From: Alphaproteobacteria bacterium
Lineage (GTDB): Bacteria > Pseudomonadota > Alphaproteobacteria > Rs-D84
Direction of reading: 5' to 3'
Assembly (NCBI GenBank): GCA_017471445.1
Contig: JAFUTJ010000008.1
Location: 48,382-112,381, forward strand
Length of the DNA: 64,000 bases
Shown here: in pieces, positions 24,317 to 47,751 of the stretch
How the letters are laid out: each line of letters opens with the position of its first letter
Numbering within the stretch: the first letter of the stretch is position 1
Notes under the pieces: model-generated
Seen by the model: the letters and a program-made list of their open reading frames with translations, nothing else
Database searches by the model: none
Told to the model about the DNA's origin: nothing
Program-made: the position numbers and the translations under genes

Positions 24317-26335
24317 ATGGAATTAAAGTTAAACAGTCTTTATAACTATGCTTTGTTATCTGCATTAAAGGGTCTTTCTGAAGGAAATTTCACTAAAATA
24401 TTCACTCTGTTTGCACGCCCAATTATTGCCGACATGGGAAAAGGAGAAGTATTTAATTCTCATAAATTTCTTGAGCAGATGAAGTTAAAATATGGTATAG
24501 ACTGGAACGACAATATAATAGCAAGTATCATGCCATATTTGGACCGTTCTGACCTTATACACCAACACCAAATAAACAAAAAAGAGATTTATCTCTGTAA
24601 TGCGGAACCTATTGATAATAACAATAATGAAATAAATCTCAAAATCCAGGAACTGTTAAATAATTTTAAAGCCTTTTTGACACAACACCCCTCTCTTACA
24701 TTCTCATATAAAACGGATGAGGACTTATTAAATATCTTAACTGATTATTTGTCCAAAACAAATTGGATTTCTCCGGAAAGCGCCAACCACCCCACCAAAA
24801 TGGAAGGCTTGTATCATTCAGATGAGGATTATGTGTGTGCAAGATTTATATTTTCCATTGCAAAATCAGAATCCATAACTTTTTTATCGGAATTATCCAG
24901 TAATATCAAACTTGGTGCTTTATTGCAGGACTTTTCTATACCCCAAGGGGAAAAGAAGAGATTTGATAACCAAAGAATTTTTCTAGATAACACCCTATTA
25001 TTATCTTATCTTGGATTGTGTGGCTTAATAGAAGAAAAGAACGCAAAATCGTTAATTGATTTACTGAAAGATAACGACGCACAAATCTGTGTTTATTCCC
25101 ACACCTGTGATGAAGCTGTTAACGCATTAAAAAGCTTAGCATCACATAAAGAAACAGAACGATTTGGACTAACATGGAACGCCATAAACAACGGTGAGGT
25201 TACAGAAGATTTTATTGATTATGTAATACGTAATTTTGAAACAATATTAGATAAAAACAATATAACCATTATTGAAACAGAAAGCAAAGCATCAACCCCC
25301 AATTTTGGCTCAATTTTTAGTGAGCTATCTTTTCTAGAAAACAAACCACTAGCACGCGAACGCGATACTCTGTCAGTTTTATATATGATTCACGAACAAA
25401 AACTAGAACGAAAAAGCGATGTATTAAATTTAAAAAACATTTTTATTACAACAAACCCGAAGTTAGTGTCTGCAGTTAAGAGATACATGGAAGAAGGTGA
25501 TAGTACGGGATACAATACGGAAATTTACGCAAACCCATTCATTGTATCTAGCAAAATGGAATTTCTATTGTGGTTAATTTATGGTAACAATGACAAAGAA
25601 GCTGCACATATACCAATGATGCAATTGATTTGTAGCGCGGATAAGGTTCGTCGTTTAAAACCAGAAATCTTTCAAATGGTACAAACAAAAATTGGTTTAC
25701 TTGCAAATCAGGACTCTTCAAAATTAAAAGCTATGCTTGAGGAACCACGTTATAAACAGGCTTTAGCCGACATGACAATGAATAATACAAATATTGCCAA
25801 TAAAATGACCACCAAAGAAATTATTGATGCGCTAGAAAAAGAAAACAAGAAAGAAATCATAGCATTAAAAGCAAAACAAGCTAAGGAAATGAAATGCAAA
25901 GATAAAGAAATATCAACCCTTAAGCAGATTTTGTTGAACCAAGAAATTGAAAAAGAGGCAAGAATCAACAGAATAATGACTAACACGTCTGAAAGGAAAC
26001 AACGACACTTTAAAAAATTTGTTTCTTGGACACTTATTGTATTAACCATCGTGTCTATCGTTCTATCCGTATGGCCGAGCATTCTGTCTATTTGGCCAAT
26101 AGCAACATGGTGTTCTTCTGTAGTTTTATTTGTATTGTATATAATAACACAGTTTTCCCCAAAAGACTGGTTAATAAAAAAGTTTGGTAAGTACGGTATA
26201 AAAAGGGCTATTATTAAAAAAATCAATAAAGAAAACTTGAGTGATATATTAAATCAGCTTGAAAAACAACAACGGGTTGATTGGGATAATTATAGAATAC
26301 GAGATAAAGAGTCTTTGCTTACTGTTAATTCATAA
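24317..26335 (+). CDS. large hypothetical protein (672 aa) with C-terminal coiled coil and two TM helices
   Basis: RBS AAGGAG before the ATG. Very AT-rich. C-terminal FVSWTLIVLTIVSIVLSVW...IATWCSSVVLFVLYIITQF. Weak PIN-like strand motifs (RIFLDNTLLL, NIFITTNPKL). No confident family. Confidence 0.65.
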   Translation: MELKLNSLYNYALLSALKGLSEGNFTKIFTLFARPIIADMGKGEVFNSHKFLEQMKLKYGIDWNDNIIASIMPYLDRSDLIHQHQINKKEIYLCNAEPIDNNNNEINLKIQELLNNFKAFLTQHPSLTFSYKTDEDLLNILTDYLSKTNWISPESANHPTKMEGLYHSDEDYVCARFIFSIAKSESITFLSELSSNIKLGALLQDFSIPQGEKKRFDNQRIFLDNTLLLSYLGLCGLIEEKNAKSLIDLLKDNDAQICVYSHTCDEAVNALKSLASHKETERFGLTWNAINNGEVTEDFIDYVIRNFETILDKNNITIIETESKASTPNFGSIFSELSFLENKPLARERDTLSVLYMIHEQKLERKSDVLNLKNIFITTNPKLVSAVKRYMEEGDSTGYNTEIYANPFIVSSKMEFLLWLIYGNNDKEAAHIPMMQLICSADKVRRLKPEIFQMVQTKIGLLANQDSSKLKAMLEEPRYKQALADMTMNNTNIANKMTTKEIIDALEKENKKEIIALKAKQAKEMKCKDKEISTLKQILLNQEIEKEARINRIMTNTSERKQRHFKKFVSWTLIVLTIVSIVLSVWPSILSIWPIATWCSSVVLFVLYIITQFSPKDWLIKKFGKYGIKRAIIKKINKENLSDILNQLEKQQRVDWDNYRIRDKESLLTVNS

Positions 26336-27186: not shown

Positions 27187-27870
27187 ATGTTTCATTCTGG
27201 CAAAAAGGATTGCAATTCAACCAAACAGACTGTTTCCAAACAACGTGTAGCAGATCACGGCGAGGTTTTTACCGCCCCGCGCGAGGTTAATGCCATGCTT
27301 GACCTGGTCAAACAGGAAACCCAGCGCATAGACAGCCGTTTTTTGGAGCCCGCTTGTGGTAAGGGTGCTTTCCTGACCGAAATACTACATCGTAAACTGG
27401 CAATTGTCAGTGAACGTTACCATCGCAGTTCCGCCGAATATGAACGTTATGCGATATTGGCAGTTGCCAGCATTTATGGAATCGACCTGTTGCCAGATAA
27501 TGTTGCCGATTGTCGTGCTTTATTGCTGGGGATTTGCATTGAAAATTACGCCGGTGCATGTAAATGCAAATGCGATTGTATCTCAACAGACTTCGTTGAA
27601 ACCATACGTTTTATTTTAAGTAAAAACATTGTTCTGGGTAATGCATTAACCCTTAAATATGCAGAAGGTACTGATAAACCAATCGTTTTTTCAGAATGGT
27701 CAATGGTCTTGGGTAAATTTAAACGCCGTGACTATTATTTTGACCATTTAGTTAACCCTGAATTTAACGGGATTTTTGATAGTTCAGACACAGGCGAAGG
27801 TAACTGGTCGCCTGTTTCTGTACGCGAATTTCCACCAACTGATTACAAAAGGTTGAAAGATGCAGAATAA
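27187..27870 (+). CDS. DNA methyltransferase-like protein (N-terminal SAM-binding region only)
   Basis: HGEVFTAPREVNAMLDLV and FLEPACGKGAFL (motif X/I of N6-adenine MTases). No NPPY-type motif seen. Overlaps the next ORF by 11 nt. Confidence 0.55.
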   Translation: MFHSGKKDCNSTKQTVSKQRVADHGEVFTAPREVNAMLDLVKQETQRIDSRFLEPACGKGAFLTEILHRKLAIVSERYHRSSAEYERYAILAVASIYGIDLLPDNVADCRALLLGICIENYAGACKCKCDCISTDFVETIRFILSKNIVLGNALTLKYAEGTDKPIVFSEWSMVLGKFKRRDYYFDHLVNPEFNGIFDSSDTGEGNWSPVSVREFPPTDYKRLKDAE

Positions 27871-29407
27871 ATATAATCCTGATGTATTAAGTTGTTTGGC
27901 CAACCTTAGCAATGATGAAGTCTTTACTCCACCAACCATTGCCAACCAAATGCTGGATATGTTGCCAGCAGATTTATGGTCAAACCCAGATGCAAAGTTC
28001 CTTGATCCGTGTTGCAAAAGCGGTGTCTTTTTGCGTGAGATTGCAAAACGACTGATTGACGGATTGGCAAAAAAGATTCCGAATTTACAAGAACGACTGA
28101 ATCACATTTATTCAAAACAATTATATGGTATCGCAATTACCGAACTGACATCCATGTTGTCACGTCGCTCTGTGTACTGCTCTAAACTTGCAAATGGTAA
28201 GTATTCAATCTGTGACGAATTTAAAAACGAAAGTGGAAATATCGTTTTTAATCGCACAGAACACACATGGGAAAACGGGAAATGTAAATTCTGTGGTGCA
28301 TCCCAAGCAGAATATGACCGCGATGAAGCTCTGGAAACCCACGCATATCAATTTATACATGTAGACGAGGTATTTAAAATGAAGTTCGACGTAATTATTG
28401 GGAACCAATCTTATCAAATGAGTGTTGGAAATGATGGTGGAAATAGTTCAAAGGCAAAATCCATTTATCATTTGTTTGTGGGACAAGCATTAAACCTTCA
28501 ACCGCGTTATCTGACCATGATTATCCCATCAAGATGGACGACCAGGACGACAGAAGTTATTCCAGATGAATGGATAGACAGAATCTTAGCTTCTAATCAA
28601 TTTAGAATATTGCATGATTTTGAAGCATCAGAAGATTGTTTCCCTGGTGTAAGTATAATGGGAGGCGTAAATTATTTCTTGTGGGACAGAGGTTACAACG
28701 GAGATTGTGAATATGTTTATCACTATCTTGACAATCCGACACCAATTACACGTTCCGGAATATTGGATCCAAATCATTTAGGTTTTATTATAAGGGATCC
28801 AAAATCTCACGCAATAATTCATAAAATTGAAAAAATTGAAGGAGATTATTCAGCGGACGATTCTACCAACTTTTCTGGTTTAGTAAGTCCTAAAGATTTT
28901 TTCACCAACAAGCAAAGCTTAACATCTAGCTGGGACAAGTTTAGTGACACCAGAGATAAAAACTTCAATATAAAATATTATCTTAACAAGCAAATTCATA
29001 AAAAAGAATTTGGCTGGGTTGCTAAAGACCAAATTCCAAAGAATCATCAAACGATTCCTTTACACAAAGTTATTATTCCAACAGCAAATGGTTCAATGGA
29101 CATGGTTTTAGGCAAACCATTTTATGGTGAACCAAATAGTGTTTGCTCACAGACATATTTAGTGATAGGTTACGACCTCGAAAAACACAACTTTAATGAA
29201 ACGCAATGTAAAAATATAATTTCTTACATAAGAACACGTTTTTTTCGTTATTTAGTAAGTATCAAAAAGAAAACCCAAAATGGTCCGCGTGGTGTTTATC
29301 AGTTCGTTCCAATGCAAGATTTCAATGAAGAATGGACTGATGAAAAATTATACAAGAAATACAAACTTACCAAAGATGAAATTGCGTTTATTGAATCTAT
29401 GGTTTGA
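27860..29407 (+). CDS. Eco57I-type N6-adenine DNA methyltransferase-domain protein with degenerate catalytic motif (NQSY instead of NPPY)
   Basis: DEVFTPPTIANQMLDML, FLDPCCKSGVFL, FDVIIGNQSYQM, then PSRW...FPGVSIMGGVNYFLWDR, which is typical of this family. Confidence 0.7.
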   Translation: MQNKYNPDVLSCLANLSNDEVFTPPTIANQMLDMLPADLWSNPDAKFLDPCCKSGVFLREIAKRLIDGLAKKIPNLQERLNHIYSKQLYGIAITELTSMLSRRSVYCSKLANGKYSICDEFKNESGNIVFNRTEHTWENGKCKFCGASQAEYDRDEALETHAYQFIHVDEVFKMKFDVIIGNQSYQMSVGNDGGNSSKAKSIYHLFVGQALNLQPRYLTMIIPSRWTTRTTEVIPDEWIDRILASNQFRILHDFEASEDCFPGVSIMGGVNYFLWDRGYNGDCEYVYHYLDNPTPITRSGILDPNHLGFIIRDPKSHAIIHKIEKIEGDYSADDSTNFSGLVSPKDFFTNKQSLTSSWDKFSDTRDKNFNIKYYLNKQIHKKEFGWVAKDQIPKNHQTIPLHKVIIPTANGSMDMVLGKPFYGEPNSVCSQTYLVIGYDLEKHNFNETQCKNIISYIRTRFFRYLVSIKKKTQNGPRGVYQFVPMQDFNEEWTDEKLYKKYKLTKDEIAFIESMV

Positions 29408-29422
29408 CCAATGGGGTAAGTC

Positions 29423-31862
29423 ATGGCAAAGAAAGTATTATTTCCGGCACGGCCGAATTTGAATCCAACTATCTATGCTTATTGCGACACCAATCCGCAA
29501 TATGCGGGTATGTTAAAGGTTGGTTACACCACAAAAAACGCAGTTGATCGTGTTGCCAAACAGTACCCTATATTGAAACCTGGGGAAAAGCCATACAAGA
29601 TTGTAATTGATGAACCGGCCATTCGTGAAGATGGGTCTGTGTTTACCGACAAAGACGTCCATCGTTTGTTACGCAATCATGGCTTTATTCAGTTGCATGA
29701 CAAAGACAATAAATTGACCGAATGGTTTAAATGTTCCGAAGCTGATGTTATGGCGGCAATCGTTGCTTTGCGACATGGCGATTCTTTGGAAGTCCAGCGC
29801 ACCGAAGATTTTGGTATGCGACCAGAACAACAGGAAGCTGTTGATTAAACCATCGCTTATTTCAAGGCATATGCGAAAGAAAATCCGGGTAAAACATCTC
29901 ACTTTTTGTGGAACGCCAAAATGCGTTTTGGAAAAACTTTCACTGCATATCAATTGGTCAAACGCATGGGATGGGGCAAGATTTTAGTTTTGACTTTCAA
30001 ACCGGCTGTTAGCAGGCGTGGGAATCTGACCTGAATACCCACAAGGATTTTGAGGGCTGGCAATTTGTTTCCAAGAAAGAAAATCGACCGAACAATTTAT
30101 GGAATCTGTAAAACATTTGGATTTAAATAGTCCTATCGTTTGTTTCGGTTCTTTCCAAGATTATCTGGGCAAAAACGAAGCCGGCGGTATTAAAGCACAA
30201 AACGAGTGGGTTCATGGAACAAATTGGGATTGCGTAATCTTTGATGAATATCATTATGGCGCATGGCGTGAAAATGCAAAGGACCTGTTTGAAAATGAAT
30301 CAAAGGCAGAACAGAAAGCCATAAATAGCGAAGCAATTGATTATTTTGATGAATCTAATATGCCAATCACCACATCGCATTATTTGTACTTGTCTGGAAC
30401 ACCTTTCCGTGCAATAAACAGTGGTGAATTCATTGAAGAACAGATTTACAACTGGACATATTCCGATGAACAACGCGCCAAGGAAGAGTGGCCCGATCCA
30501 GAAACAAACCCTTATGCTGCGTTACCCCGTATGGTAATGATGACATATCAATTGCCAGAATCTATCCGTAATGTTGCATTGGGTGGTGAATTCGATGAAT
30601 TTGACCTGAATACCTTCTTTGAAGCCGAAGGTGAAGGTAAAAACGCCAAATTCAAATATGAAAATGAAGTACAAAAATGGTTGGACCTTATCCGTGGCAA
30701 TTTGATGGAAACGACAGTTGATAATTTGAAAATGGGTGCCAAGAAGCCGCCTATGCCCTTTGCCGACACCCGTTTATTGGGCATATTGTCACACACATTC
30801 TGGTTCTTGCCGTCTGTTGCCGCATGTCACGCTATGGCAAACTTGCTGAAACGCCGTCAAAATGTGTTCTATCATGACTATAAGATAATTATTGCCGCCG
30901 GAACCGAAGCCGGCATCGGCGAAAAAGCATTATTGCCAGTATTTGAAACGATGGACAATCCATTGGAAACAAAAACAATCACTTTATCATGTGGAAAATT
31001 GACCACGGGCGTGTCTGTAAAACCTTGGTCTGGTATCTTTATGTTAAGAAATCTTAAGACACCGGGAACGTATTTTCAGGCCGCTTTTCGCGTGCAAACA
31101 CCATGGGTTATCAAAAACCCAGATGGCGCACATCCAAATACCACGCAAATAATGAAGGAAGAATGCTATATTTTCGACTTTGCCCCGGATCGTGCGTTGC
31201 GACAAATAACGGACTACAGTTGCCGTTTGAACGTTGAAGAAAGCGATCCTGAAAAGAAAGTTGCCGAATTTATCAACTTCTTACCAGTACTGGCCTATGA
31301 CGGCAGTGCTATGCGTCAAGTAAATGCTGGTGAAATACTGGATATGGCAATGAGTGGTACCAGCGCAACATTGTTGGCACGCCGTTGGGAAAGTGCTTTG
31401 TTGGTCAATGTGGATAATGCCACCCTGATGCGTTTGATATCTAATGAAAAGGCAATGAAAGCCCTGATGAGTATCGAAGGTTTCCGCAGTTTGAATCAGG
31501 ATTTTGAAACCATTATCAACAAATCCAACGCAATCAAAGAAAAGAAACAAAAGGCCAATGAACGCGAACTGACCAAACAAGAAAAGAAAGAATTGTCCGA
31601 TTATCGGGAACGTACATTAAAAGACGTTATCACGCAATTGGAACCGGGACTATTCAAAAAGGTTACCGGTCTGGATGTGAAAGATTTTGAATTGTTGGTA
31701 AGCATCGGGGTATTTAACGATGCGTTGATGAATGATGCCGTATATAAATTCAAACGTTATGAAGATGCAAGTTTGGAATACTCCGGTATCAATAAACACA
31801 AAGGTGGTCCTGTCCCACGAAGATTACGAGATGATGTAAGGATTAAAAATCTAATGGATTGA
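29423..31862 (+). pseudogene. GIY-YIG/T5orf172-like nuclease fused to DEAH-helicase restriction subunit, disrupted (one in-frame TAA, two frameshifts)
   Basis: N-terminus IYAYCDTNPQYAGMLKVGYTT. TAA at 29846-29848 sits inside EQQEAVD*TIAYF...WNAKMRFGKTFTAYQL (P-loop). Frame changes occur near 30015 and 30090. Then FDEYHYGAW and YLSGTPFRAI in the 587-aa ORF. Confidence 0.75.
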
Positions 31863-34344
31863 ACTCTGTGCCTTTGGCCGTTTGTTGGGGCTTTCTAACA
31901 GTTTCTGTTTTCTCTGTTGCTGTTAACATAGCCTGCACGTTCGCCATATTAAAACCATCTACAATGTTCATAATATGTAATGCCATTGATGCGATTTTCT
32001 TCAAATCCTGTTCTGAAATGTGAAAATTTTCAGATATCTGCTGAGGATTCCCATGCGAATGCGGGTCAGTAACTTTAACAATATAAGCTAACTTATATTT
32101 TAAATCTTGTTTCGTCTTTTCATCGAGCCCATCCAATTTGTCTATCTTATCGACAAACGTATTTAGACCAGGACTATTATTTGGTCTACCATTATCCGCA
32201 ATAATAGCAAATTTAAAAGACAAAAACGTTTCCAAGACCCTCCTTATGTAATTTGGTAAATATCTTTTGGCTGATATGTAATCGTTATTTACACCTTCTG
32301 CGTATTCAATGATCGATTTTAGCATATAAAAATAAGGGGTCTCAAAATTTCTTAACTCTGGTGGCAACTCGATAAGTTTATTATTGTCCAAAAATAAACA
32401 GTTAGCATTTCCAGCGTAAAATGAATTAAAAAATTTCAAGAATAAAAAGTTATGACTTAATACTATCAACTGTTTTATATCTTTAAATGTTTCCCTTATT
32501 AAATAGGCTGTACTATAAAGTCTATTTTCGTCTAAACTAGAAATAGGATCATCTATAATTACAATTGCTTCTGCAGCTTTATTAGAAGATTTTATTTCAT
32601 TCTCATATTTACTCAGAAAATAAGAGAACGCAAGTGCTGTTTTTTCACCTTCACTTAAAGTATTTTTTAATTTGTTTTTTGTAACCATTTCAGGAATATA
32701 ACTTATAACAATATTTTCGTCCGGAGCGTCTTCGTTTATATCTACACTGAAGTGTTCTATCCCCATTAACCCCAAAAACTTGCCTATTCCCTTAGATTCT
32801 GATTTTATCTGTTTCAGTTTTTCTGTTAATGCTTTTTTATAAAACGATAGTGTTTTATCGTCATTATCATCAGCCTTTGATATTTCGTTTAAAATTTTCA
32901 TATTTTTGCTAAATTTCTTAATTCCGCCATCTTTTATGCTCTGATCAAAATCCACTAAAATTAAGTCATTATAAATAGCTCGCATTTCTTTTTCTATGGC
33001 ATTCGTGTTCAATTTTTGCGATTGAAGACTTGATAATAACGCAGATTTTATTTTATCTAAATTGTCAATATAATTTTCGTAACAAACAGAGTCAAATTTA
33101 TATTTCGGCATAAAGCTAACTTGAACGTACACGTTTGACAATTTGGCATCAATGCTCGCTGACAACTCAGTAAAAAAATTTTCGATTTCTTCAAAATCTA
33201 TGTTTGGTATAGAGTATTCTATTTGGATATGACTATACTTTTGTTTTTGTTTCTCCAATATTATAAAATTATTTTTGTTGATTTTGATATCATTGACAAA
33301 ACTCTCTACTTGGTTCTTTGTTGTTTTTAGTTCTTCAATAAAAATTTCATATTCCATATCAAAATATCTATCAAAATCTTGCAGTATAGATTCAATAGAA
33401 TCTGATATATCATTGTTGCAAATTGGGCAATATATTTTTTGATAGTTTTTTTTGACTCGTTTTAGTATATTTTTACCAAATCTAAACCACGGTTCTGCTT
33501 TATTTTTATCGGACTCATCTACTAACACATTTTTTATTTCATAAATTCTATTTTGCAATACCTGTTTTGATATTTGTTGAATTGTTTTATTTAATAGTGA
33601 CTTTATGTGCTCAATATTTATATTCGTCCTTTCGAACCCCAATTTTGCAAGTTCTTCACAATCATCTGCCATATCTGCCTGTCGCTTGCTTAACTCATAT
33701 TTTATTTTTAAAGAATTTATCTCGTTTTCTAATTCTTCGTATGTTTTTGTTGGGACCGTATACACTTGTTCCAATTTGGGAACAGATAACCGTTTATTTG
33801 CATCTGTGAGATTTTTACCAAACTTTCCGCTATATTTGTTAGTTATATTTTTTATATTTTCTTGTAATGAAATATTTTCTTTTTTTAATTCATCACTTTC
33901 TCGTTCGAGTGCATTTATTTTTTCTGTAATTTTTACGATATCATCATTCTTAATATTAGCGTTACCTGTTTTGGCAAATTTTTTAAGATTTCCTTTTGTT
34001 CCATCAAATACATGAGAAAATACAAAATTTTGGTTAAAAACAAAAAGATTTTTATCATGAACTCGATTTGCTGGATATTTTAAGATTCCATCTTGAGTAT
34101 TGATTTCAACATAAGCCGTGTCATCTATCTTTATATCGTTAAAAATTTCTTTCTTTTCATCTTCGCTTATAAATAAATTACTAGAAAACAACGATAAAAT
34201 ATTTGATAAAGTGGTTTTTCCAGAACCATTTGCTCCTAATATAATATTACAATTTTGATTAGGAACACTATATACAAAATCTTTCTCTTGCTGAAAATCT
34301 GTAAATTTACCAAATTTCGCACATTTATGGATGTTTTTTATCAT
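31843..34344 (-). CDS. AAA_13-type ATPase resembling RloC/PrrC anticodon nucleases (Walker A, long coiled-coil insert with CxxC, Walker B, C-terminal R-x3-E...H region)
   Basis: ILGANGSGKTT; CPICNND about 300 aa in; VIIDDPISSLDENR; LSHNFLF; C-terminal YIRRVLETF...DPHSHGN. Confidence 0.7.
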   Translation of the reverse strand: MIKNIHKCAKFGKFTDFQQEKDFVYSVPNQNCNIILGANGSGKTTLSNILSLFSSNLFISEDEKKEIFNDIKIDDTAYVEINTQDGILKYPANRVHDKNLFVFNQNFVFSHVFDGTKGNLKKFAKTGNANIKNDDIVKITEKINALERESDELKKENISLQENIKNITNKYSGKFGKNLTDANKRLSVPKLEQVYTVPTKTYEELENEINSLKIKYELSKRQADMADDCEELAKLGFERTNINIEHIKSLLNKTIQQISKQVLQNRIYEIKNVLVDESDKNKAEPWFRFGKNILKRVKKNYQKIYCPICNNDISDSIESILQDFDRYFDMEYEIFIEELKTTKNQVESFVNDIKINKNNFIILEKQKQKYSHIQIEYSIPNIDFEEIENFFTELSASIDAKLSNVYVQVSFMPKYKFDSVCYENYIDNLDKIKSALLSSLQSQKLNTNAIEKEMRAIYNDLILVDFDQSIKDGGIKKFSKNMKILNEISKADDNDDKTLSFYKKALTEKLKQIKSESKGIGKFLGLMGIEHFSVDINEDAPDENIVISYIPEMVTKNKLKNTLSEGEKTALAFSYFLSKYENEIKSSNKAAEAIVIIDDPISSLDENRLYSTAYLIRETFKDIKQLIVLSHNFLFLKFFNSFYAGNANCLFLDNNKLIELPPELRNFETPYFYMLKSIIEYAEGVNNDYISAKRYLPNYIRRVLETFLSFKFAIIADNGRPNNSPGLNTFVDKIDKLDGLDEKTKQDLKYKLAYIVKVTDPHSHGNPQQISENFHISEQDLKKIASMALHIMNIVDGFNMANVQAMLTATEKTETVRKPQQTAKGTEFNPLDF

Positions 34345-34383
34345 TGTTTTTAGCCTGTATAATAAATTTAATCAGCACATTCA

Positions 34384-35142
34384 CTAAGACAATGCCGTAT
34401 TTATTTTATTTGGATCAATAGGTATACCCGCTGCTTGCATATGTTTTATGATAGAATTACCTGCTTCTTTTATAACAGAATCCTTGAAAGGCACATACAA
34501 CAAACCACTTACATCAGATGGATCTTCTATATCACCTTTGCGTAATATCGCTACTTTATGGCGTCCTATAGAACCAATTAAAATACCCATTTCTAAAATT
34601 ACATTTTGCCGTGCTCGTGACCGCAAGTTGCAATTATTTTGTTCATAATCTTTTTTGCTACACCCAACATCATCTGGGGTCATTAAAACAATTCCAAACG
34701 CTGAATCATAGACAATTCTTTGTTCCAAAGCTTCTATTATAGTCTTTCCTCCCTCAACATTATTTTTCAATATATACGGTTCAAGCCCCAATCGCATAAT
34801 AAACAACTCTAACTCTCGCAAGGATGTATCATCGTGTCCGTGAACAATAAAAATTTTCTTACTTGCAATTGATGGAACAAAATTTGATTGGGGAGCCTGC
34901 ATAACATTGCCACAAATATTATTTAATGCATTAAAGAAAGCTTCTTCAAACTTGTGTTTGTTTTCTCCGTCTGGACCTTGAATATTTATTGTTTTACTTG
35001 AATCCCACCAATTTAAACATATTCCCGTTTCGGTTCTAAATTGTTTTTGTCCGCTAGATAATTCTTTCCATTCTCCCTTAAAGCCGGTATGATTAACCTT
35101 GTCTTGTAATTCTTGATATGTCCCTGTAAATTTATTTGCCAT
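34384..35142 (-). CDS. TIR-like nucleotide-binding protein (COG4271 / Cap12-PycTIR-type TIR-like domain) with unknown ~95-aa N-terminal domain
   Basis: KIFIVHGHDDTSLRELELFI...FGIVLMTPDDVG...RSRARQNVILEMGILIGSIGRHKVAIL...DPSDVSGLLYVPF matches the bacterial TIR-like family pattern. Confidence 0.7.
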   Translation of the reverse strand: MANKFTGTYQELQDKVNHTGFKGEWKELSSGQKQFRTETGICLNWWDSSKTINIQGPDGENKHKFEEAFFNALNNICGNVMQAPQSNFVPSIASKKIFIVHGHDDTSLRELELFIMRLGLEPYILKNNVEGGKTIIEALEQRIVYDSAFGIVLMTPDDVGCSKKDYEQNNCNLRSRARQNVILEMGILIGSIGRHKVAILRKGDIEDPSDVSGLLYVPFKDSVIKEAGNSIIKHMQAAGIPIDPNKINTALS

Positions 35143-35522
35143 TTAATCACCTTTATTTTGCTTTTATATTAGCAAATTCATTATGAATTTTTCCATATAA
35201 AAATCGTTAGCAACAAATTATTGCTATTGTCGCTGAAAGCATAAACTGATATGGTTTTGTGAGGGGGATTTTTGGGGCTCTGGTTTCAAACAGATTTCAG
35301 GTTGAATACTGTATGATTACCGATTGATTTCTATACGGCTAGGCGTTCGCACTTGTACCGCACATAACGCTTTGTTTTTACGCAGTAAAACATCAAGGCG
35401 CGAACCGCGAACACATTTTTGAATTCTGACGCTAGCAGGGTGGGATGCTCGCCGTTACCCTCGATGAAAAAGTCCGTCACAGTACCTTTTTATTTTTTAC
35501 CGATACAAAAATCAAACAGAAA

Positions 35523-35948
35523 TCAGTCTGATTCTTGGTTCTTGTTTGGCATCGCATTTAACCTTTCGGTCAGCCGATCCAGCGCAGTTTCGTATCGCGC
35601 AATAATGTTTTGTCGTGACAACCCCAAACATTTTGCGATTTTTGGAAAACTCATCTGGCAGGCACGCATCCAAATTATGCGTTTATTCGTGGTGCCGTCT
35701 ATCGTTTTAAAACATTGCCGGGTCACGAGCCCCCAGATATCTATTTGTTCGCTTGTGGGGTTTCTTTTGCTTTTAAAGTCGTCAAAATGGTCGTCCCATG
35801 ACAAATCATACCATTTCTTGATAATACCCCATTCACCCCAACCGTCCGGGCGCGGATATCGCGACATCAGTGCCCTGTCCGTCAGCACGGCGATACCGAA
35901 CCAGTATTTTACTTTGTCTTTGCTCCACTTTTCTTCTTCGCCGTTCAT
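35523..35948 (-). CDS. island protein with C-terminal sigma-70 region-4-like HTH
   Basis: 141 aa, with ...MSFPKIAKCLGLSRQNIIARYETALDRL at the C-terminus. Confidence 0.5.
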   Translation of the reverse strand: MNGEEEKWSKDKVKYWFGIAVLTDRALMSRYPRPDGWGEWGIIKKWYDLSWDDHFDDFKSKRNPTSEQIDIWGLVTRQCFKTIDGTTNKRIIWMRACQMSFPKIAKCLGLSRQNIIARYETALDRLTERLNAMPNKNQESD

Positions 35949-35950
35949 CT

Positions 35951-36337
35951 CTACTCCCTTAGGTTATTTTGATAGAATGTATTTTCCTGTTCTATCCACA
36001 TGGCAATCTGTTTCATAGACAACTGCCGACCTTTACGTTTTTGTCGTAAAGTTCGTTCTGCCCTATCAATAACTTCCGGTGGAAAAAAGTCTGTATATTT
36101 TCTGAATTCTGGGTACACATTCCCCAAGATTTCAAAACTGAAATAATCATTGATGCGAAAGATATCAACATCTGAATCAATGTTTTCAACAAGGTTTTCA
36201 ACAATATTTTCGGCATTACTACTTACTGTATCTTTTGCAATAACATTATGTTTTTCATTATGATTATCAATACTACTTTCTATTACCGTTGATTTCTGTT
36301 CTGATTTCAGACCTGATTTCAGAGACCGCGGTCGCAT
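35951..36337 (-). CDS. hypothetical island protein (128 aa)
   Basis: ORF in the same operon-like string downstream of the integrase. No family recognised. Confidence 0.45.
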   Translation of the reverse strand: MRPRSLKSGLKSEQKSTVIESSIDNHNEKHNVIAKDTVSSNAENIVENLVENIDSDVDIFRINDYFSFEILGNVYPEFRKYTDFFPPEVIDRAERTLRQKRKGRQLSMKQIAMWIEQENTFYQNNLRE

Positions 36338-36510
36338 TTTTCGCGGTATTTTTGTGCATCACGGTCTATCTGGTTCTTCATGTATTTCCACACAATCAAA
36401 TTGCTGTCCCGATTTGGATGTTCGAATATACAGTGCAACAGTTTGGCACATTCAGATTCTGGCATATCTTTAATAAGAATCGCCATGGTTGGATCGATTA
36501 GTATTTTCAT
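36319..36510 (-). CDS. hypothetical island protein (about 63 aa)
   Basis: Start MKILID preceded by AAAGGTGG. First gene after the GTGGC repeat cluster. Confidence 0.45.
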   Translation of the reverse strand: MKILIDPTMAILIKDMPESECAKLLHCIFEHPNRDSNLIVWKYMKNQIDRDAQKYREKCDRGL

Positions 36511-36570
36511 ATTTGCCACCTTTAATATCAAAATAACTGCTTATTTACAGCCTCAGACGGGTCTATGCGG

Positions 36571-36630
36571 GTGGCAGATGGGGTGGCGCGGTGTGGCAGG
36601 TGAACGAAGCATGTGGCCTTTTGGTGTGGC
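36571..36630. repeat. cluster of five direct GTGGC(R) repeats (candidate protein-binding sites)
   Basis: GTGGC at 36571, 36583, 36593, 36613 and 36626, with spacings of 12/10/20/13 nt. A local GC-rich patch between the integrase stop and the next operon start. Confidence 0.6.
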
Positions 36631-36660
36631 GTTTTTGACCGAACTGTACCACATCTACTG

Positions 36661-37881
36661 CTACGCACATATTGCATCGGCTATATGATTGACCGCTTGG
36701 AATGTGTTTTTGTTGGCAATATGTGTGTACATTTCCATCGTAGTCAATTTGGTATGTCCGGCGGCATCCTTCATTGCGTTCATATTTTCGCCCAAGTTCG
36801 CCCCCATAGTGATGAAAGAGTGTCGTAAATCATGTATCCGCATGTGCGGCAGCCCCGCCTGACGCAACGCCCAAAGAAACGGTTTCGTGACGTTAGATAT
36901 CGGTTTATCTTTGTCATGTACACCTGGAAATACGTAAATACTGTCAATATCTGCAGGTTCCGCCAACGCCAATCGCAATTCTGCCACCGCAACATCGGAC
37001 AGTTTTACGTCCCTGGCCCCTGTTTTACTGTCTTTCAAGTGAATCATTTTTTCGTCCAGCGCAACCTCTGTTCTTTCCAAATCGGTTATTTCTGAACATC
37101 GGCATCCAGTCAATGCCAGTATCTTTAATGCCCGGAACATACGCGGTGTCATATCAGGTCGGTCTAGCCCCATATCCAGCGCAGCAAACAGTTTTTTATA
37201 CCCGTCTAAATCCAGGACTACTGCTTTGAATTTTTCATTTGAACCTTTCTTGACGTATTTGCACAGATTACTGCCCCGTGGAACATATTTATATGTTTCA
37301 CACCAATCCCACATACTAGAAAACAATGACAATGTTTTATTAACGGTTGAAAACGATGTTGCTTTTGCCCAGGCCGTATATGCATCTACAAGATCTTTTT
37401 CCTCGATGTCTTTCATATACATATCGCCAAATCTTGGTTGGATGTATGATCTGTATTCCTTGCCATCTGAATATTGGGTACTCGGTTTCTTATACACGCG
37501 CGAATACTTTTCCATATATTCTGCAAAGACCTGTTCCACCGTCACGCGGCTTTCTTGTTCACGTTGTTGTTCTTTGCGTTTTTGTTCGCGTAAATCTATT
37601 GTGGCTTGCCCAGATGCTATGGTTTTACGGATTTCCAACGCACGTTCTTTGATTTCGGACAACTTAAAATCCCCGTAACGCCCCACCAACATTTGTCGTT
37701 GTTTACGAGTCACCCCGCTTCTGTAAGACAGATAAAAACTTATATTTCCTGTTTTCGTATAATATCGCAGATACAGCCCCGGTATGGTACTGTCGCTGAT
37801 TTGCATGTTGCACGGACCGGTCAAGGTTTTTATCCAGTTGTCGCGGAATACCCTGGTCGCGCATTGCCATTTTAGTCGCAT
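36661..37881 (-). CDS. int: tyrosine site-specific integrase (P4-like, with DUF4102-type N-terminal arm-binding domain)
   Basis: 406 aa with ...IPGLYLRYY... near the N-terminus. The catalytic region has LTGCRCSE, HDLRHSF and AGHTKLTTMEMYTH. Confidence 0.9.
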   Translation of the reverse strand: MRLKWQCATRVFRDNWIKTLTGPCNMQISDSTIPGLYLRYYTKTGNISFYLSYRSGVTRKQRQMLVGRYGDFKLSEIKERALEIRKTIASGQATIDLREQKRKEQQREQESRVTVEQVFAEYMEKYSRVYKKPSTQYSDGKEYRSYIQPRFGDMYMKDIEEKDLVDAYTAWAKATSFSTVNKTLSLFSSMWDWCETYKYVPRGSNLCKYVKKGSNEKFKAVVLDLDGYKKLFAALDMGLDRPDMTPRMFRALKILALTGCRCSEITDLERTEVALDEKMIHLKDSKTGARDVKLSDVAVAELRLALAEPADIDSIYVFPGVHDKDKPISNVTKPFLWALRQAGLPHMRIHDLRHSFITMGANLGENMNAMKDAAGHTKLTTMEMYTHIANKNTFQAVNHIADAICA

Positions 37882-37953
37882 AATTACCCCCTTTGGTTAT
37901 ACATTTGTTACACAACACATACCGTATAAACGGCACAAGTCCAGTCAAAAGAA

Positions 37954-38139
37954 CTACTTCTGTTGTTTTAGTTTTCGGGATTCCACCCATGCATCTACAT
38001 CTGATTGTTTATACCGGACCAAATGCCCCAGTTTGGCGTATATCGGTCCCTTGTTATTCATTCGGTATTCAATAATAGTTGAAACAGCGATACCCAGATA
38101 TTCACTAAGTTCTTTGGTGCTTAATAGTTTTTCTTGCAT
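37954..38139 (-). CDS. AlpA/excisionase-family HTH protein
   Basis: 61 aa. LLSTKELSEYLGIAVSTIIEYRMNNKGPIYAKLGHLVRYKQSDVDAWV is the typical AlpA/Xis (MerR-like HTH_17) pattern. Confidence 0.85.
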   Translation of the reverse strand: MQEKLLSTKELSEYLGIAVSTIIEYRMNNKGPIYAKLGHLVRYKQSDVDAWVESRKLKQQK

Positions 38140-38375
38140 TGTTTGCTCCTTTGGTTATACGTTTTTACGTTTACAAACAATGTGCGAAAGTCATGTCAGA
38201 AATATCATGTTTTATCAATAATTGTAAATAATTCTTTACAGATCGACAGAAAAAATCATATGTATTTTTACCGGATTTTTATTGTGTTATACAGACGTTA
38301 TATATAATAAAAACCGCCCCAAAATGCAGATTTCTGGGGCAGATGCATTTTCTTTACAAAATGTTTAGAAAGTCC

Positions 38376-38404
38376 TTGACTTGTGCGGAGTTTAGAGTTA
38401 TTAT
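38376..38404 (+). promoter_or_regulatory. sigma70-like promoter of tRNA-Asn
   Basis: TTGACT (38376-38381), 17-nt spacer, TATTAT (38399-38404), 12 nt before the tRNA 5' end. Confidence 0.6.
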
Positions 38405-38416
38405 AACACGCGTTAT

Positions 38417-38492
38417 TCGGGCATAGTTCAGTCGGTAGAACAACGGACTGTTAATCCGTATGTCACTGGTTCGAGTCCAGTTGCCCGAGCCA
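38417..38492 (+). tRNA. tRNA-Asn (anticodon GUU)
   Basis: TCGGGCA/TGCCCGA acceptor stem, anticodon loop CTGTTAA, TTCGAGT T-loop, encoded CCA. Near-identical core to the E. coli tRNA-Asn layout. Confidence 0.9.
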
Positions 38493-40486: not shown

Positions 40487-42979
40487 ATGACATTTGATAA
40501 ATTACGGGATGATAACGAAGCGTACGCACGCTTGAAAATTAATCAGAAGTTGATTGACGCTGGTTGGTTTTTGACCGATACACCGGAACACAAACGCAAT
40601 GTGAATGTTGAACAAAAGGTTGATTCTGGGTTCGCTGACTATGAAATGCTGGATTCGAACGGCTTTCCTTTGTGTGTTATTGAAGCAAAAAAGCCATCAA
40701 TCAACCCATTAAGTGCCAAAGAACAAGCGCACAGGTATGCAACCGAACACAATATCCGGTTTGTTATTTTATCAAATGGTGAAATTTATTATTTATGGGA
40801 CATAAAATCAGGTAATCCACAAATCATAACCCAAATACCAACCCAGGAATCTTTGGAAATGCGTTTCGGGTTTAATCCGCAAACCAAAGATATAATGAAA
40901 GAAAACATTATTCCTGAATATGTCGCATTACAGAAGAATTCGCGTTTGTTGGATACACCCGAATATCAAGACCCAAAGACGCGCGGTGCGTATTGTTGGA
41001 ATAATGGATTGCGTATATTGCGTGATTATCAACTTGGTGCTATTCGTGCAGTGCAACAAGCAATCGCCGATGGTAAAGACAGATTTTTGATTGAAATGGC
41101 GACTGGATTGGGTAAAACATTGACAGCGGGTGCAATAATTCAAATGTTATTACGCACCGGACACGCGCATAGAGTTTTATTCCTTGTTGACCGTATTGAA
41201 TTGGAACAGCAAGCGTGGAAAAACTTTAATGATTATCTGTGCGATTTCATAACGGTTATTTATAAAGAAAATACAAAGGATTGGCACAAAGCGGATATTA
41301 TTGTTTCAACCATCCAAACATTGATGGCGAGTGATAAATATAAACATTTTTCACCAACTGATTTTGATTTTATAATATCAGACGAAGCACACCGTTCAAT
41401 CGGTGGTAACAGCCGCGCAGTATTTGAATATTTTATCGGTTATAAATTGGGATTAACCGCAACACCACGCGATTATATTAAAAATGTGGATGTTGATAAA
41501 ATCAAAGTCAATGACCCAAAAGCGCTTGAACGCAGATTATTATTGGATACATATAAAACATTTGGTTGTGAAAGCGGTGAACCAACATACAAATACACAA
41601 TGATTGATGGTATTAAAAACGGTTATTTAGTTGCCCCGATGGCTATTGACGCACGCACAGATATAACCACAGAGATGTTATCCGAAAAAGGTTATCATGC
41701 GATTGGTGTTGACGACAATGGTGAGGATGCCGAAGCCGATGTTGTTGTAAAAGATTTTGAAAAACGCTTTTTCAATGAAAATATAAACGCGGTATTTTGC
41801 AAAGCATTCCTGGAAAATGCAGAACGCGACCCAATCAGTGGCGAAATTGGTAAAACATTGGTATTTTGCGTCAGTCAATCACACGCTGCAAAGATTACCC
41901 AGATGTTGAACGAATTGGCTATGCAGGCATTCCCAGGTAAATACAACAGTGATTTTGCTGTCCAGGTTACCAGCACGGTCCAAAACGCACAGCAAATGAC
42001 AAATCAGTTTATGACTGATAATAATAATCTGGGTGGTAAATCAACATTTTTAGAAGGATATGATACATCAAAAACGCGCGTATGTGTAACCGTTGGAATG
42101 ATGACGACGGGTTATGATTGCAGCGATTTATTAAACATCGTATTTATGCGACCTGTGTTTTCACCGACTGATTTTGTGCAAATGAAGGGACGCGGAACCC
42201 GTAAATATACATTCAAATATGTTGACCAAGACAAGAACGAAATCAAGAAAGACAAAGAACGGTTTAAGATGTTTGATTTCTTTGGTAACTGTGAATATTT
42301 TGAAGAAAAATTTGATTACGGACAACAATTAAAATTACCGCCATTGTCCAAAGGAGTTGACGTTGGAACGCGGTGTGGCGAATCACGAACATTTACAACA
42401 TTGACATCCGAAGAGATAACCAAACTGATTCAAATGGAAACGCTTAACATACCAGACAATGGTATGCGTATTGACCGCGAATTCTGGGGCAATTTCCAAA
42501 AGACAATCTGTGCGGATATTGATATTAAAAATGCGGTTAAAAACAGTGATTGGGATTATGCGGTTGCTTTGGTTAAAGATAAATACGAAAACAAACCTGA
42601 ATTGTATCCCAACCTTGAAAAAATTAAAAAAGCGACAAAATTGGACCGCCGTTTATCTTGGCGCGAAATATTGGAACACATATTCGGTCTGCTGCCCCGG
42701 TTTAAGACACGCGATGAAATGTTAGAGGATGAATGTGATAAATACATATCCATTGTTAAACCTGACGCTGAAATTGTGCCGTCCATTAAAAATTTTATAA
42801 AATTATATGTTACGGATAATACATTTCGTGATATAATAGAAAAACAGGAATATCCGCGACTTAACGCTGAAATTCCTGGATTCAGTATGATGGATTTAAA
42901 GTTGATGGGTAAAGACATCCGCGAAAATTTACCGGAATACATCAAAGAAAACATTGTTTTGAATAAATATATGGGGTAG
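40487..42979 (+). CDS. hsdR: Type I restriction enzyme R subunit (HsdR-like, PD-(D/E)xK N-domain + DEAH helicase)
   Basis: FADYEMLD...CVIEAKK nuclease-like N-terminus, then MATGLGKT, IISDEAHRS, TATPR and MKGRGTR motifs. Confidence 0.85.
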   Translation: MTFDKLRDDNEAYARLKINQKLIDAGWFLTDTPEHKRNVNVEQKVDSGFADYEMLDSNGFPLCVIEAKKPSINPLSAKEQAHRYATEHNIRFVILSNGEIYYLWDIKSGNPQIITQIPTQESLEMRFGFNPQTKDIMKENIIPEYVALQKNSRLLDTPEYQDPKTRGAYCWNNGLRILRDYQLGAIRAVQQAIADGKDRFLIEMATGLGKTLTAGAIIQMLLRTGHAHRVLFLVDRIELEQQAWKNFNDYLCDFITVIYKENTKDWHKADIIVSTIQTLMASDKYKHFSPTDFDFIISDEAHRSIGGNSRAVFEYFIGYKLGLTATPRDYIKNVDVDKIKVNDPKALERRLLLDTYKTFGCESGEPTYKYTMIDGIKNGYLVAPMAIDARTDITTEMLSEKGYHAIGVDDNGEDAEADVVVKDFEKRFFNENINAVFCKAFLENAERDPISGEIGKTLVFCVSQSHAAKITQMLNELAMQAFPGKYNSDFAVQVTSTVQNAQQMTNQFMTDNNNLGGKSTFLEGYDTSKTRVCVTVGMMTTGYDCSDLLNIVFMRPVFSPTDFVQMKGRGTRKYTFKYVDQDKNEIKKDKERFKMFDFFGNCEYFEEKFDYGQQLKLPPLSKGVDVGTRCGESRTFTTLTSEEITKLIQMETLNIPDNGMRIDREFWGNFQKTICADIDIKNAVKNSDWDYAVALVKDKYENKPELYPNLEKIKKATKLDRRLSWREILEHIFGLLPRFKTRDEMLEDECDKYISIVKPDAEIVPSIKNFIKLYVTDNTFRDIIEKQEYPRLNAEIPGFSMMDLKLMGKDIRENLPEYIKENIVLNKYMG

Positions 42980-42983
42980 CGAA

Positions 42984-44888: not shown

Positions 44889-44905
44889 ATTACAACGAAG
44901 TTAAA

Positions 44906-45478
44906 TTGGGGGATGAAAAATATTTTAATATTGAATCTGGTGGCACCCCATTAACCACAAATGATGATTTTTGGAATGGTGGCATAAATTGGATAAGTTT
45001 GATGGATGTTCCCAACGATGTTGATGTTAATATAATCAACAGCACAACAAAGACAATATCGGAACAAGGTCTAAAACATTCATCAGCAAAATTATTACCA
45101 GTTGATACAATTGTGGTGTCAAGCAGAGCCACTATCGGCAGGGTTGGACTTGCAAAAATCCCACTAACCACAAATCAGGGTTTTAAGAATATAATCATAT
45201 TAGATAATAATGCTATTGAACCGAAATTTGTCGCTTTTGCAATGTTGCAGAAAAAGCAAGAAATGGAACAAAACGCATCTGGTGGAACATTCAAAGAAAT
45301 ATCAAAAACAAATTTTGCTAAACTATCTATTCCTTTACCATCCATTGACGACCAAAGACGCATTGTTGCAAAATTGGAAGCGGAACAGGAAATTATTGAC
45401 GCAAACAAACGCTTGATTGATTTAATGCAAGATAAAATCAACCAGGTTATTAACCGTATTTATAAATGTGATTTATAG
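44906..45478 (+). CDS. hsdS: HsdS second half (TRD2 + distal conserved helix), out of frame with the upstream M-S ORF
   Basis: LGDEKYFNIESGGTP...TTNQGFKNII...LSIPLPSIDDQRRIVAKLE are typical HsdS motifs. Only a TTG start and no obvious RBS. The frame stays open upstream through DGIDYNEVK. Confidence 0.75.
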   Translation: MGDEKYFNIESGGTPLTTNDDFWNGGINWISLMDVPNDVDVNIINSTTKTISEQGLKHSSAKLLPVDTIVVSSRATIGRVGLAKIPLTTNQGFKNIIILDNNAIEPKFVAFAMLQKKQEMEQNASGGTFKEISKTNFAKLSIPLPSIDDQRRIVAKLEAEQEIIDANKRLIDLMQDKINQVINRIYKCDL

Positions 45479-46695: not shown

Positions 46696-47751
46696 TTATT
46701 TTGTTGTGTAGAAAGTTGTGCGTCCGTTACCATGTTTAACCAAGCGGCCACTTTCTGTCAAATTACGCAAAATATTCTTTACTGTGCTAAGTTTTATGTT
46801 CAGATATCCTGATAATTCCCCAGACGACCATTCTGGACGTGCTTCAAATGCACTTAAAATATTTAATGCATTACGGGATAATGAAGTATCTCCACCACTA
46901 ACCCTTTCCAGTTTGGATTCCAAATGACGTTTTTGTTTCTGCAATGATGTGATAAAGAAATCCAACCATGGTACATAATCAACAACATCTGTCCATATTG
47001 TCTTTTGGGTTTCATGCAACGAACGATAATACATTCCCTTGCTTGCTTCGATTATCGATTCCATTGATGAATATGGCACATATGAATACCCATTTTGCAA
47101 CATCAACATTGTTGTTAACGCACGCGACATACGACCATTACCATCTTTGAACGGATGGATTGACAAGAAATGCACAATAAATACACCAATAACAACAATC
47201 GGATGCAAATATTTTTCTTTCAGGTGTAAATTAGTCCAATCTAACAATTCGCCTATCAATCTTGGTGTATCAAACGGTGTAGCAGTTTCAAATATTGAAC
47301 CTATTTCATTACCATTTACATCAAAAGCCGCAACACGATTAGATGTTTTTTTGTATTCACCACGATGTTCAATATCCTTGGTTGAATGTCCCATCAAGAT
47401 TTTATGCAACTGTTTGATATAATTTTCGTTCAAAGGGATAACCGAATAATCATTGAAAATACGTTCAATCAAATCTGCATATCCGGCGACTTCTTCTTCG
47501 TCACGACTTTTAAAAGATGTCTGTTTGATGTTTTTGAACAGATTTTCAATTTCAGCATCAGACATCTTGTTGCCTTCAATACGATTTGAAGAACCGACAG
47601 ATTCAATCGTTGCTACCATTTTCATTGCACGCAAAACCTCTGGTCGAACTTTGATGGCCCCACTGTCCCAATTTGCCTTGAACATATCCAATTCTGCGAT
47701 TTTATTCAGCATTTCTGGTGTAATTTTGATATTATTTATGTTCGGCATCAT
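46696..47751 (-). CDS. Fic-family protein (intact) with C-terminal winged-helix domain
   Basis: Canonical HPFKDGNGRMSRAL motif. 351 aa. C-terminal ...LSTVKNILRNLTESGRLVKHGNGRTTFY. Confidence 0.9.
   Translation of the reverse strand: MMPNINNIKITPEMLNKIAELDMFKANWDSGAIKVRPEVLRAMKMVATIESVGSSNRIEGNKMSDAEIENLFKNIKQTSFKSRDEEEVAGYADLIERIFNDYSVIPLNENYIKQLHKILMGHSTKDIEHRGEYKKTSNRVAAFDVNGNEIGSIFETATPFDTPRLIGELLDWTNLHLKEKYLHPIVVIGVFIVHFLSIHPFKDGNGRMSRALTTMLMLQNGYSYVPYSSMESIIEASKGMYYRSLHETQKTIWTDVVDYVPWLDFFITSLQKQKRHLESKLERVSGGDTSLSRNALNILSAFEARPEWSSGELSGYLNIKLSTVKNILRNLTESGRLVKHGNGRTTFYTTK

Follow-up and report, generated by a model that had tools for sequence, protein, structure and literature searches.

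A TIR-like gene and a divergent RloC-family gene side by side at a restriction-linked locus of an alphaproteobacterium

Introduction

RloC is a characterized anticodon nuclease that excises the wobble nucleotide, an activity under the control of its zinc hook and its DNA-dependent ATPase. Its family members are 658–897 amino acids (aa) long and combine ABC motifs, a coiled-coil that carries a CX2C zinc hook, and the motif Arg-X3-Glu-X36-52-His, often with Ser before the His; the prototype rloC, that of Geobacillus kaustophilus, is flanked by an hsdR relic (Davidov and Kaufmann 2008, PMC2610378). The nuclease domain of both RloC and PrrC is a HEPN domain (PMC3710099). Here, we examine a 64,000-nt stretch of DNA (the window: positions 48,382–112,381 of contig JAFUTJ010000008.1, assembly GCA_017471445.1, Alphaproteobacteria bacterium, Rs-D84) in which an RloC-like gene (gene B) follows a gene for a TIR-like protein (gene A) on the same strand, among restriction–modification (R-M) genes. 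A first-pass annotation of the window proposed that the two form an undescribed anti-phage cassette. We conclude that A and B are probably two independent single-gene modules of the abortive-infection type that accumulated at one restriction-linked hotspot, with no dedicated two-gene system.

Compared with RloC, B falls within the size range, has all the ABC motifs, carries a coiled-coil insert with a CX2C hook that splits the ATPase, and ends in R-x3-E...S-H. Like the prototype, it lies beside R-M genes and the relic of a restriction subunit, here a decayed helicase. It differs in that the spacing between Glu and His is 58 residues, that is, 6 beyond the published range, and in that the linked R-M system is split and type IIG-like, not type I or III. 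With PrrC, the tRNA-Lys anticodon nuclease that is embedded in EcoprrI, it shares an ABC ATPase joined to a HEPN nuclease with an R-E-H triad, the linkage to R-M, and the logic of a "second line of defence." PrrC, however, has no coiled-coil/zinc-hook insert, is only ~340–420 aa long, and is always located inside type Ic hsd operons, whereas the 833-aa B has the insert and its neighbors are a type IIG-like methylase and helicase instead of hsdMSR.

Gene A also has catalogued relatives. It fits the full-length PADLOC model PDC-S35, N-domain included (PDLC05003; E = 1e-79, aa 4–251 against profile positions 3–244 of 245), and members of this family are often embedded in type I R-M operons. A does not really differ from them: it is an ordinary member, which happens to stand beside a type IIG-like R-M system and an RloC-like gene and not inside an hsd operon. 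With Cap12 (TIR-STING) and PycTIR, which deplete NAD+ as effectors in CBASS and Pycsar, A shares the TIR subfamily PF10137, a superposable fold, and the R-x-N-x3-E active-site residues, including the catalytic Glu. In contrast to those proteins, it has no STING or cyclic-nucleotide-binding sensor, its sensor would instead be an unrelated N-terminal domain of ~75 aa, and no cyclase (CD-NTase or PycC) lies among its neighbors here or at related loci.

Each gene is therefore separately catalogued, A as PDC-S35 and B as PDC-S06 and in the RloC family, while the pair itself is unnamed. Both are single-gene candidate families for phage defence. The PDC families were defined by "guilt-by-embedding" in BREX, DISARM, and type I R-M loci (bioRxiv 10.1101/2024.01.29.577857); the supplements of that paper do not mention the identifiers PDC-S35 and PDC-S06. 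A literature search on PDC-S35/PDC-S06, PF10137/COG4271, and RloC with TIR gave no description of the A–B pair and no named system that joins the two, as the first-pass annotation had stated. In sum, B extends the RloC family by a new, divergent member, A is one more ordinary protein of a candidate family that had already been catalogued, and their pairing is unnamed and is not a conserved system. The positions, composition, and motifs reported earlier for the two genes were all verified (Table 1).

Table 1. Features of the locus, in window coordinates
Feature	Position	Strand	Description
Gene A	34384..35142	-	252-aa PDC-S35-type protein: N-domain plus Cap12/PycTIR-type TIR domain
A N-terminal domain	34858..35142	-	aa 1–95: modelled alpha-beta4-alpha fold (aa 1–75), then disordered linker
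A TIR-like domain	34387..34857	-	aa 96–252; NADase active-site pattern R178-x-N180-x3-E184
A active-site segment	34582..34617	-	encodes RARQNVILEMGI
Region upstream of A	35143..35309	-	167 bp; travels with the A–B block (blastn boundaries)
A–B intergenic spacer	34345..34383	-	39 bp; conserved in lineage relatives
Gene B	31843..34344	-	833-aa RloC-family ABC ATPase–HEPN anticodon-nuclease-like protein (PADLOC PDC-S06)
B Walker A / P-loop	34207..34242	-	ILGANGSGKTTL, aa 35–46; GANGSGKTT is aa 37–45
B CX2C zinc-hook motif	33412..33435	-	IYCPICNN, aa 304–311, at the apex of the helical insert (aa ~134–526)
B second ATPase half	32446..32661	-	ABC signature LSEGEKTA (563–570); Walker B/D-loop VIIDDPISSLD (595–605); H-loop LSHN (H631)
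B C-terminal HEPN/anticodon-nuclease motif	32044..32250	-	R701-x3-E705 ... S763-H764
T5orf172-ResIII (type IIG-like) restriction/helicase pseudogene	29423..31862	+	tblastn against the intact 844-aa protein of relative L006; PADLOC REase_MTase_IIG
Eco57I-type N6-adenine methyltransferase	27860..29407	+	515 aa, intact; Pfam PF07669 (5e-30); PADLOC REase_MTase_IIG and MTase_II

Distribution of the two gene families

Adjacency inside a defence island is no evidence of a system, and co-occurrence of the pair across genomes had been set beforehand as the test. Relatives of A were sought in one genome per species with the A-family alignment as query; this gave 579 confirmed relatives, and the analysis covered the 80 best loci, each with at most 6 kb of flank per side. 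Relatives of B were sought in metagenomes with the B alignment as query, and the best 80 loci of 388 relatives were analysed. When all open reading frames (ORFs) of the A-relative loci were searched with B and with a profile of the B subfamily, none of the 80 had an adjacent B-like gene, and the A-family profile matched at none of the 80 B-relative loci. No pairing was seen among the PLSDB plasmid homologues (TIR-like or AAA_13-like genes) either. The pair was seen only in one lineage whose members are ~90–92% identical, and the proposal of an undescribed two-gene cassette is not supported by this comparison.

Genes of the AAA_13 type do occur at two of the 80 A-relative loci (L021 and L034), 1–2 kb from the A relative and in the same type I R-M locus. 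The first (L021, 1935–4292) is canonical (Pfam E = 2e-172) and the second (L034, 7925–10594) divergent, and other genes lie between each of them and the A relative. Independent insertions at shared R-M hotspots would fit this arrangement.

Six close orthologues of A are found without B, in unrelated company. The two at 84% identity are followed by a Fic/DOC gene (P0002) and by a gene of 124 aa (P0003), and the one at 76% (P0007) by a 203-aa gene and then an AccI R-M system; the orthologue at 72% (P0010) has no co-directional gene downstream. The remaining two, both at 69%, stand among hsd genes in the orders hsdM-A-hsdS-x-hsdR, with hsdS next (P0013), and hsdM-A-x-hsdS, where x encodes 193 aa (P0018). 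At the DNA level, the window shares homology with each of the six solo-A loci over the A ORF alone, except for one locus where it reaches ~80 bp further 5'. Because this homology starts and stops at the A ORF, one can conclude that A is mobile by itself, as a single-gene cassette. The small genes downstream of A were considered as a possible hidden partner family, and this was rejected: they are mutually unrelated and unrelated to B.

The locus of the 76%-identical orthologue (L002) carries partial copies of a tRNA-Asn 3' end at 5357–5402 and 10335–10394. They flank a ~5-kb segment with A, the 203-aa gene, and the AccI-type R-M system, an integrase lies just outside, and the copies look like the attachment (att) repeats of a small integrative defence islet.

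Both families are restriction-linked independently of each other. Type I R-M genes lie within 6 kb of A at 21 of the 80 A loci, typically in the order hsdM/S-A-hsdR. The relatives of B are located between hsdS and hsdR, or beside methylases, an AlwI endonuclease, or HsdR, with no TIR gene.

The A–B lineage

The A–B pair, with the same 39-bp spacer, was found on at least 16 metagenomic contigs. All of them show ~90–92% DNA identity and belong to one lineage, an uncultured Alphaproteobacterium by NCBI naming, so they are not independent evidence for a system. Within this lineage B is at least 90% identical, and beyond it B is at most 48% identical to anything. A search of E. coli genomes with the 3.3-kb A–B DNA returned no match. 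The block is found in two different upstream contexts, and its boundary in the relatives is the 167-bp region upstream of A (blastn), ~80 bp of which accompanies the solo A orthologue L177 too.

Both genes are intact in every variant of the lineage, which upholds the earlier remark that the pair stays whole beside a decayed R-M system. The helicase gene is broken in the window, differently broken in L184 (526 + 304 aa; 7066–9599), and intact at 844 aa in L006 (2819–5353), L185 (6956–9490), L187, and L188. Of the partner methylase, L183, L185, and L187 have only fragments, and both R-M genes are intact in L006 and L188. The R-M genes have thus decayed independently in sister genomes while A and B stayed intact. 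One relative (L183) was considered as a natural knockout of B, with A intact and B split into 361 and 455 aa; it was rejected, as the split is a scaffold gap of Ns.

Ratios of nonsynonymous to synonymous substitution rates (dN/dS; Nei–Gojobori, window against lineage relatives) are 0.09 for A and 0.17 for B, which indicates that both genes are under purifying selection. Within B, the ratio is 0.055 in the second ATPase half (aa 531–660), 0.09 in the HEPN domain, and 0.25 in the coiled-coil. Synonymous divergence (dS) is uneven along the block: between the window and L185/L188, it rises from 0.09 in A and 0.11 in the N-terminal head of B to 0.28 in the coiled-coil and 0.42 in the HEPN domain, and between L185 and L188, it is 0.65 in the helicase gene and 0.015 in B. 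From these values it follows that recombination has shuffled segments of the block, which is a mosaic, and that the helicase gene has a separate history again.

The guanine-plus-cytosine (GC) content is 0.345 in A and 0.288 in B against 0.38–0.45 in the flanks, and at third codon positions (GC3) 0.25 and 0.24 against 0.39–0.54 in flanking genes. This AT-rich composition marks both genes as foreign within a mobile island.

Is there cooperation between the two genes?

Several observations count against treating A and B as independent modules. The genes are co-directional and 39 bp apart, and no terminator-like hairpin or site was found in the spacer. Promoter and terminator scans gave site counts that were not above those of shuffled controls, with no site in the spacer, and co-transcription would be possible. 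All of the at least 16 lineage contigs, in both upstream contexts, keep the order A–B, the two genes are alike in GC3, and cooperation specific to this lineage is possible. In addition, the activities, triggers, and phenotypes of both proteins are predicted, PDC-S35 and PDC-S06 are candidate families, and in each direction the co-occurrence scans rest on the 80 best of several hundred loci.

The most far-reaching proposal that these points allow is that PDC-S35-type proteins such as A are NAD-depleting counterparts of PrrC, with an N-domain that docks on or monitors an R-M enzyme and frees the TIR NADase once a phage has disabled restriction. A and B would then, in this lineage, be cooperating guards of the type IIG-like R-M system, possibly co-transcribed, that hit NAD+ and tRNA together and persist after the restriction gene decays. 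We regard this as unlikely.

Distinctly improbable, in our judgment, is a real lineage-specific two-gene system in which the RloC-like ATPase would detect DNA damage or failed restriction and govern the TIR NADase, or the other way round, whether as a sensor/effector pair or as a coupled dual effector on NAD+ and tRNA. The common strand and the short gap without a terminator would suit such a system, as would the joint movement of pair and spacer between two upstream contexts and the purifying selection on both genes; other ABC/SMC ATPases, LmuB for example, do pair with varied effectors (bioRxiv 10.1101/2024.01.29.577857). Yet co-occurrence ends at the border of the one ~90%-identical lineage in either direction, and the close orthologues of A have unrelated neighbors, with homology that stops at its ORF. 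Moreover, neither gene needs a partner, as B carries a conserved effector domain of its own and A a candidate sensor domain, and the threefold difference in dS between A and most of B suggests different histories.

The reading of A and B as two single-gene modules is mostly deflationary for the two-gene claim. What the locus offers in its place is a well-documented case of natural stacking at a restriction-linked hotspot, in which two suicide-type modules are kept under purifying selection while the restriction gene decays variously in sister genomes. An RloC-like gene stacked with a second toxin-type gene beside R-M is a known pattern; here, the second gene is TIR-like.

The TIR-like protein

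Gene A matches Pfam PF10137 (CAP12/Pycsar effector protein, TIR domain; CAP12-PCTIR_TIR) over aa 96–220 (E = 3.7e-33), and the motifs KIFIVHGHD, VLMTPDD, and RARQNVILEMG are all present, in agreement with the domain identity first assigned. Its AlphaFold model (predicted local distance difference test score, pLDDT, of 81) consists of an alpha-beta4-alpha N-domain (aa 1–75), a disordered linker (aa 77–93), and a flavodoxin-like domain (aa 96–252). The best Foldseek matches of the C-terminal domain are TIR-STING (9lmq and 7un8; E = 1e-7) and the TIR-APAZ protein of SPARTA, and at the sequence level the A-family profile picks up Cap12 and PycTIR chains. In the TIR-STING protein SfSTING, R78 and N80 coordinate the substrate and E84 is catalytic (PMC9402430). 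In a hidden Markov model (HMM) alignment, the SfSTING residues R-D-N-V-V-F-E pair with R178-Q-N180-V-I-L-E184 of A, and E184 falls on E84. As the equivalents of R78, N80, and E84 are invariant in 47 of 47 members of the A family, A very probably keeps the chemistry of an NAD (nicotinamide adenine dinucleotide) glycohydrolase.

The N-domain is modelled with confidence (pLDDT 88–92 at aa 10–70) and is conserved family-wide, with G23, W25, W46, T51, Q55, and G56 invariant in the alignment of 47 members. It gave no Pfam match at E <= 1 and no PDB sequence match at E <= 10; the Foldseek search was made with the whole A protein, and its result is dominated by the TIR domain. We infer that the N-domain is a regulatory, sensor, or docking module.

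The TIR domain of the Cap12/PycTIR type, together with an N-domain that could be a small ligand-binding module, might lead one to suspect an orphan CBASS or Pycsar effector that answers to a cyclic nucleotide from a cyclase encoded elsewhere, its place next to B being incidental. We consider this very unlikely, since A scores only 28–36 bits (35.6 at best) with the NCBIfam Cap12 model, far under the cutoff of 450, has no STING, SAVED, or cyclic nucleotide monophosphate (cNMP)-binding domain, and has no cyclase among the annotated neighbors here or at related loci, where R-M embedding is seen instead.

With its complete NADase active site, its conserved N-domain, and about one-quarter of its sampled loci in type I R-M operons, the A family is the more interesting half of the pair. 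It is a reasonable candidate for R-M-embedded TIR proteins that guard restriction systems as PrrC does.

The A family is widespread, with thousands of homologues. The TIR-like domain (aa 93–250, at ~44% identity) occurs in 1147 PLSDB plasmid records, mostly from Klebsiella, E. coli, and Salmonella, attached to differing N-termini; an example is the gene at 42703–43602 of NZ_CP045691.1 (L180, 5554–6453). On pTK421_1, the A-type gene lies among VapBC and Abi genes and runs convergently to pifC and a P-loop NTPase gene. In ten Bartonella genomes (L038, L042, L044, L046, L052, L054, L055, L059, L072, and L075), a relative of A follows a TMP-TENI (thiamine-phosphate synthase-like) gene at a chromosomal site that is conserved and lies outside R-M operons; the relative appears to be vertically fixed there.

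The RloC-like protein

Gene B matches Pfam PF13166 (AAA_13) over aa 30–792 (E = 3.6e-53), which bears out its first assignment, and two PADLOC models of PDC-S06, PDLC04894 (E = 2.4e-46, aa 1–714) and PDLC04887 (E = 1.4e-44, aa 1–767). The match to the PrrC model is partial (E = 8.5e-15, aa 493–710 only). The motifs GANGSGKTT, CPIC, VIIDDPISSLD, RRVLE, and HSH were all verified. In the model, the ATPase head is bipartite, the CPIC loop sits at the apex of a long helical insert, and the C-terminal domain is helical. Besides Lamassu LmuB, the Foldseek neighbors are Rad50 and SMC heads. A sequence search of the PDB with B found no RloC or PrrC structure, the sole match being a marginal one to Rad50.

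Among 32 members of the B subfamily, G37, N39, G42, K43, and T45 of Walker A and C306, P307, and C309 of the zinc hook are invariant. All the ABC ATPase motifs, including the H-loop histidine, are invariant or nearly so, and the same holds for S763 of the C-terminal motif; R701, E705, and H764 are fully invariant. Homologues of B at 45–48% identity carry the JGI name "wobble nucleotide-excising tRNase." Three features, a Rad50-like ABC ATPase, its CPIC zinc hook, and R-x3-E...S-H in the C-terminal region, place B as a divergent member of the RloC family, with a predicted tRNase activity.

There is little to suggest that one or both genes lack a role in defence, with B as a Rad50-like protein related to DNA repair and A as a nucleotide-binding or nucleoside-processing enzyme. 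The functions of both subfamilies are predictions from sequence, the NCBI names are the noncommittal "AAA family ATPase" (B) and "nucleotide-binding protein" (A), and some relatives of A occupy conserved chromosomal sites, such as those in Bartonella. Against this, embedding in R-M operons and defence islands is strong and repeated for both families, both proteins conserve their toxin-type catalytic motifs, and the two genes are of foreign, AT-rich composition inside a mobile island, which makes a role outside defence highly improbable.

A Lamassu-like arrangement, with B as an LmuB-type SMC sensor and A as a TIR effector in place of LmuA, can be dismissed as barely credible: the likeness of an effector gene followed by a Rad50/SMC-like coiled-coil ATPase gene is superficial, and even with LmuB as the best structural match of B (9hqx_B, E = 2.4e-5), a weak PADLOC LmuB match (E = 2.1e-12), and the known modularity of Lamassu effectors (bioRxiv 10.1101/2024.01.29.577857), B scores far higher with PDC-S06 and AAA_13 and carries a nuclease motif of its own, the PrrC/RloC HEPN motif that LmuB lacks, A has no LmuA match in PADLOC (LmuA is DUF4297-type), there is no LmuC-like gene, and the co-occurrence data oppose an obligate pairing.

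Proposed mode of action

If A and B are indeed separate modules, each would act alone, and their co-location would provide a layered and mechanistically distinct back-up to the adjoining R-M system. By analogy with the described anticodon nucleases (PMC2610378, PMC3710099), the Rad50-like head and zinc hook of B may hold the HEPN nuclease inactive until DNA damage or the loss of restriction is sensed, and the released nuclease would cleave tRNA anticodon loops and arrest translation. In A, the N-domain may sense a cue from the phage or from the R-M system. Such a cue could lead to TIR–TIR assembly and, with it, to a complete NADase site like that of TIR-STING filaments (PMC9402430); the assembled TIR domains would degrade NAD+ and abort the infection.

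Adjoining R-M genes and island

The Eco57I-type methyltransferase is the partner of the decayed restriction gene. Relative to the intact protein of L006, the latter has an in-frame stop at codon 142, two frameshifts near 30016–30081, a 31-codon deletion, and an altered C-terminus. The ORF that remains (30099..31862) is convergent with B, and the altered C-terminus results in a 20-bp overlap between the two; the overlap with a dead helicase gene that had been described earlier is real, and the gene is a true pseudogene.

The island of R-M genes, recombinases, and an integrase named in the first-pass annotation was confirmed. On one side of the A–B block lie a resolvase, a methylase fragment, the Eco57I-type methylase, and the T5orf172-ResIII gene; beyond A lie small DUF6362 and DUF6291 genes, a P4-type integrase, an HTH_17 gene, tRNA-Asn, and a large serine recombinase. 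The 3-kb integrase module (35310–38308: DUF6362, DUF6291, the P4-type integrase, and HTH_17) is absent in L183, L185, L186, and L187, where the tRNA-Asn region (window 38309–38492) is ~120 bp from the start of the A–B block (window 35309). For this reason, the module seems to have been inserted or deleted as a separate event between the tRNA and the defence block. It is the 5' end of tRNA-Asn, not the 3' end, that faces the module. A search of the window for att repeats of tRNA-Asn that would delimit the island found none, and an Rfam scan found nothing but four tRNAs.

Beside the resolvase, a 672-aa ORF (24317–26335, +) is a candidate cargo gene of the island; it belongs to no Pfam or PADLOC family and has only a weak, sub-threshold C-terminal match to DUF4231 (E = 0.0012). 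A second R-M system, which is type I-like, is located at 40487–45478 (+) and comprises an HsdR-like gene, a fusion of M and S, and an extra S subunit. Further along are a SoFic homologue (46696–47751, -; PADLOC E = 4e-40) and a truncated Nhi/AbiO-like gene (48115–48843, +) that encodes 242 aa against a profile of ~470 positions.

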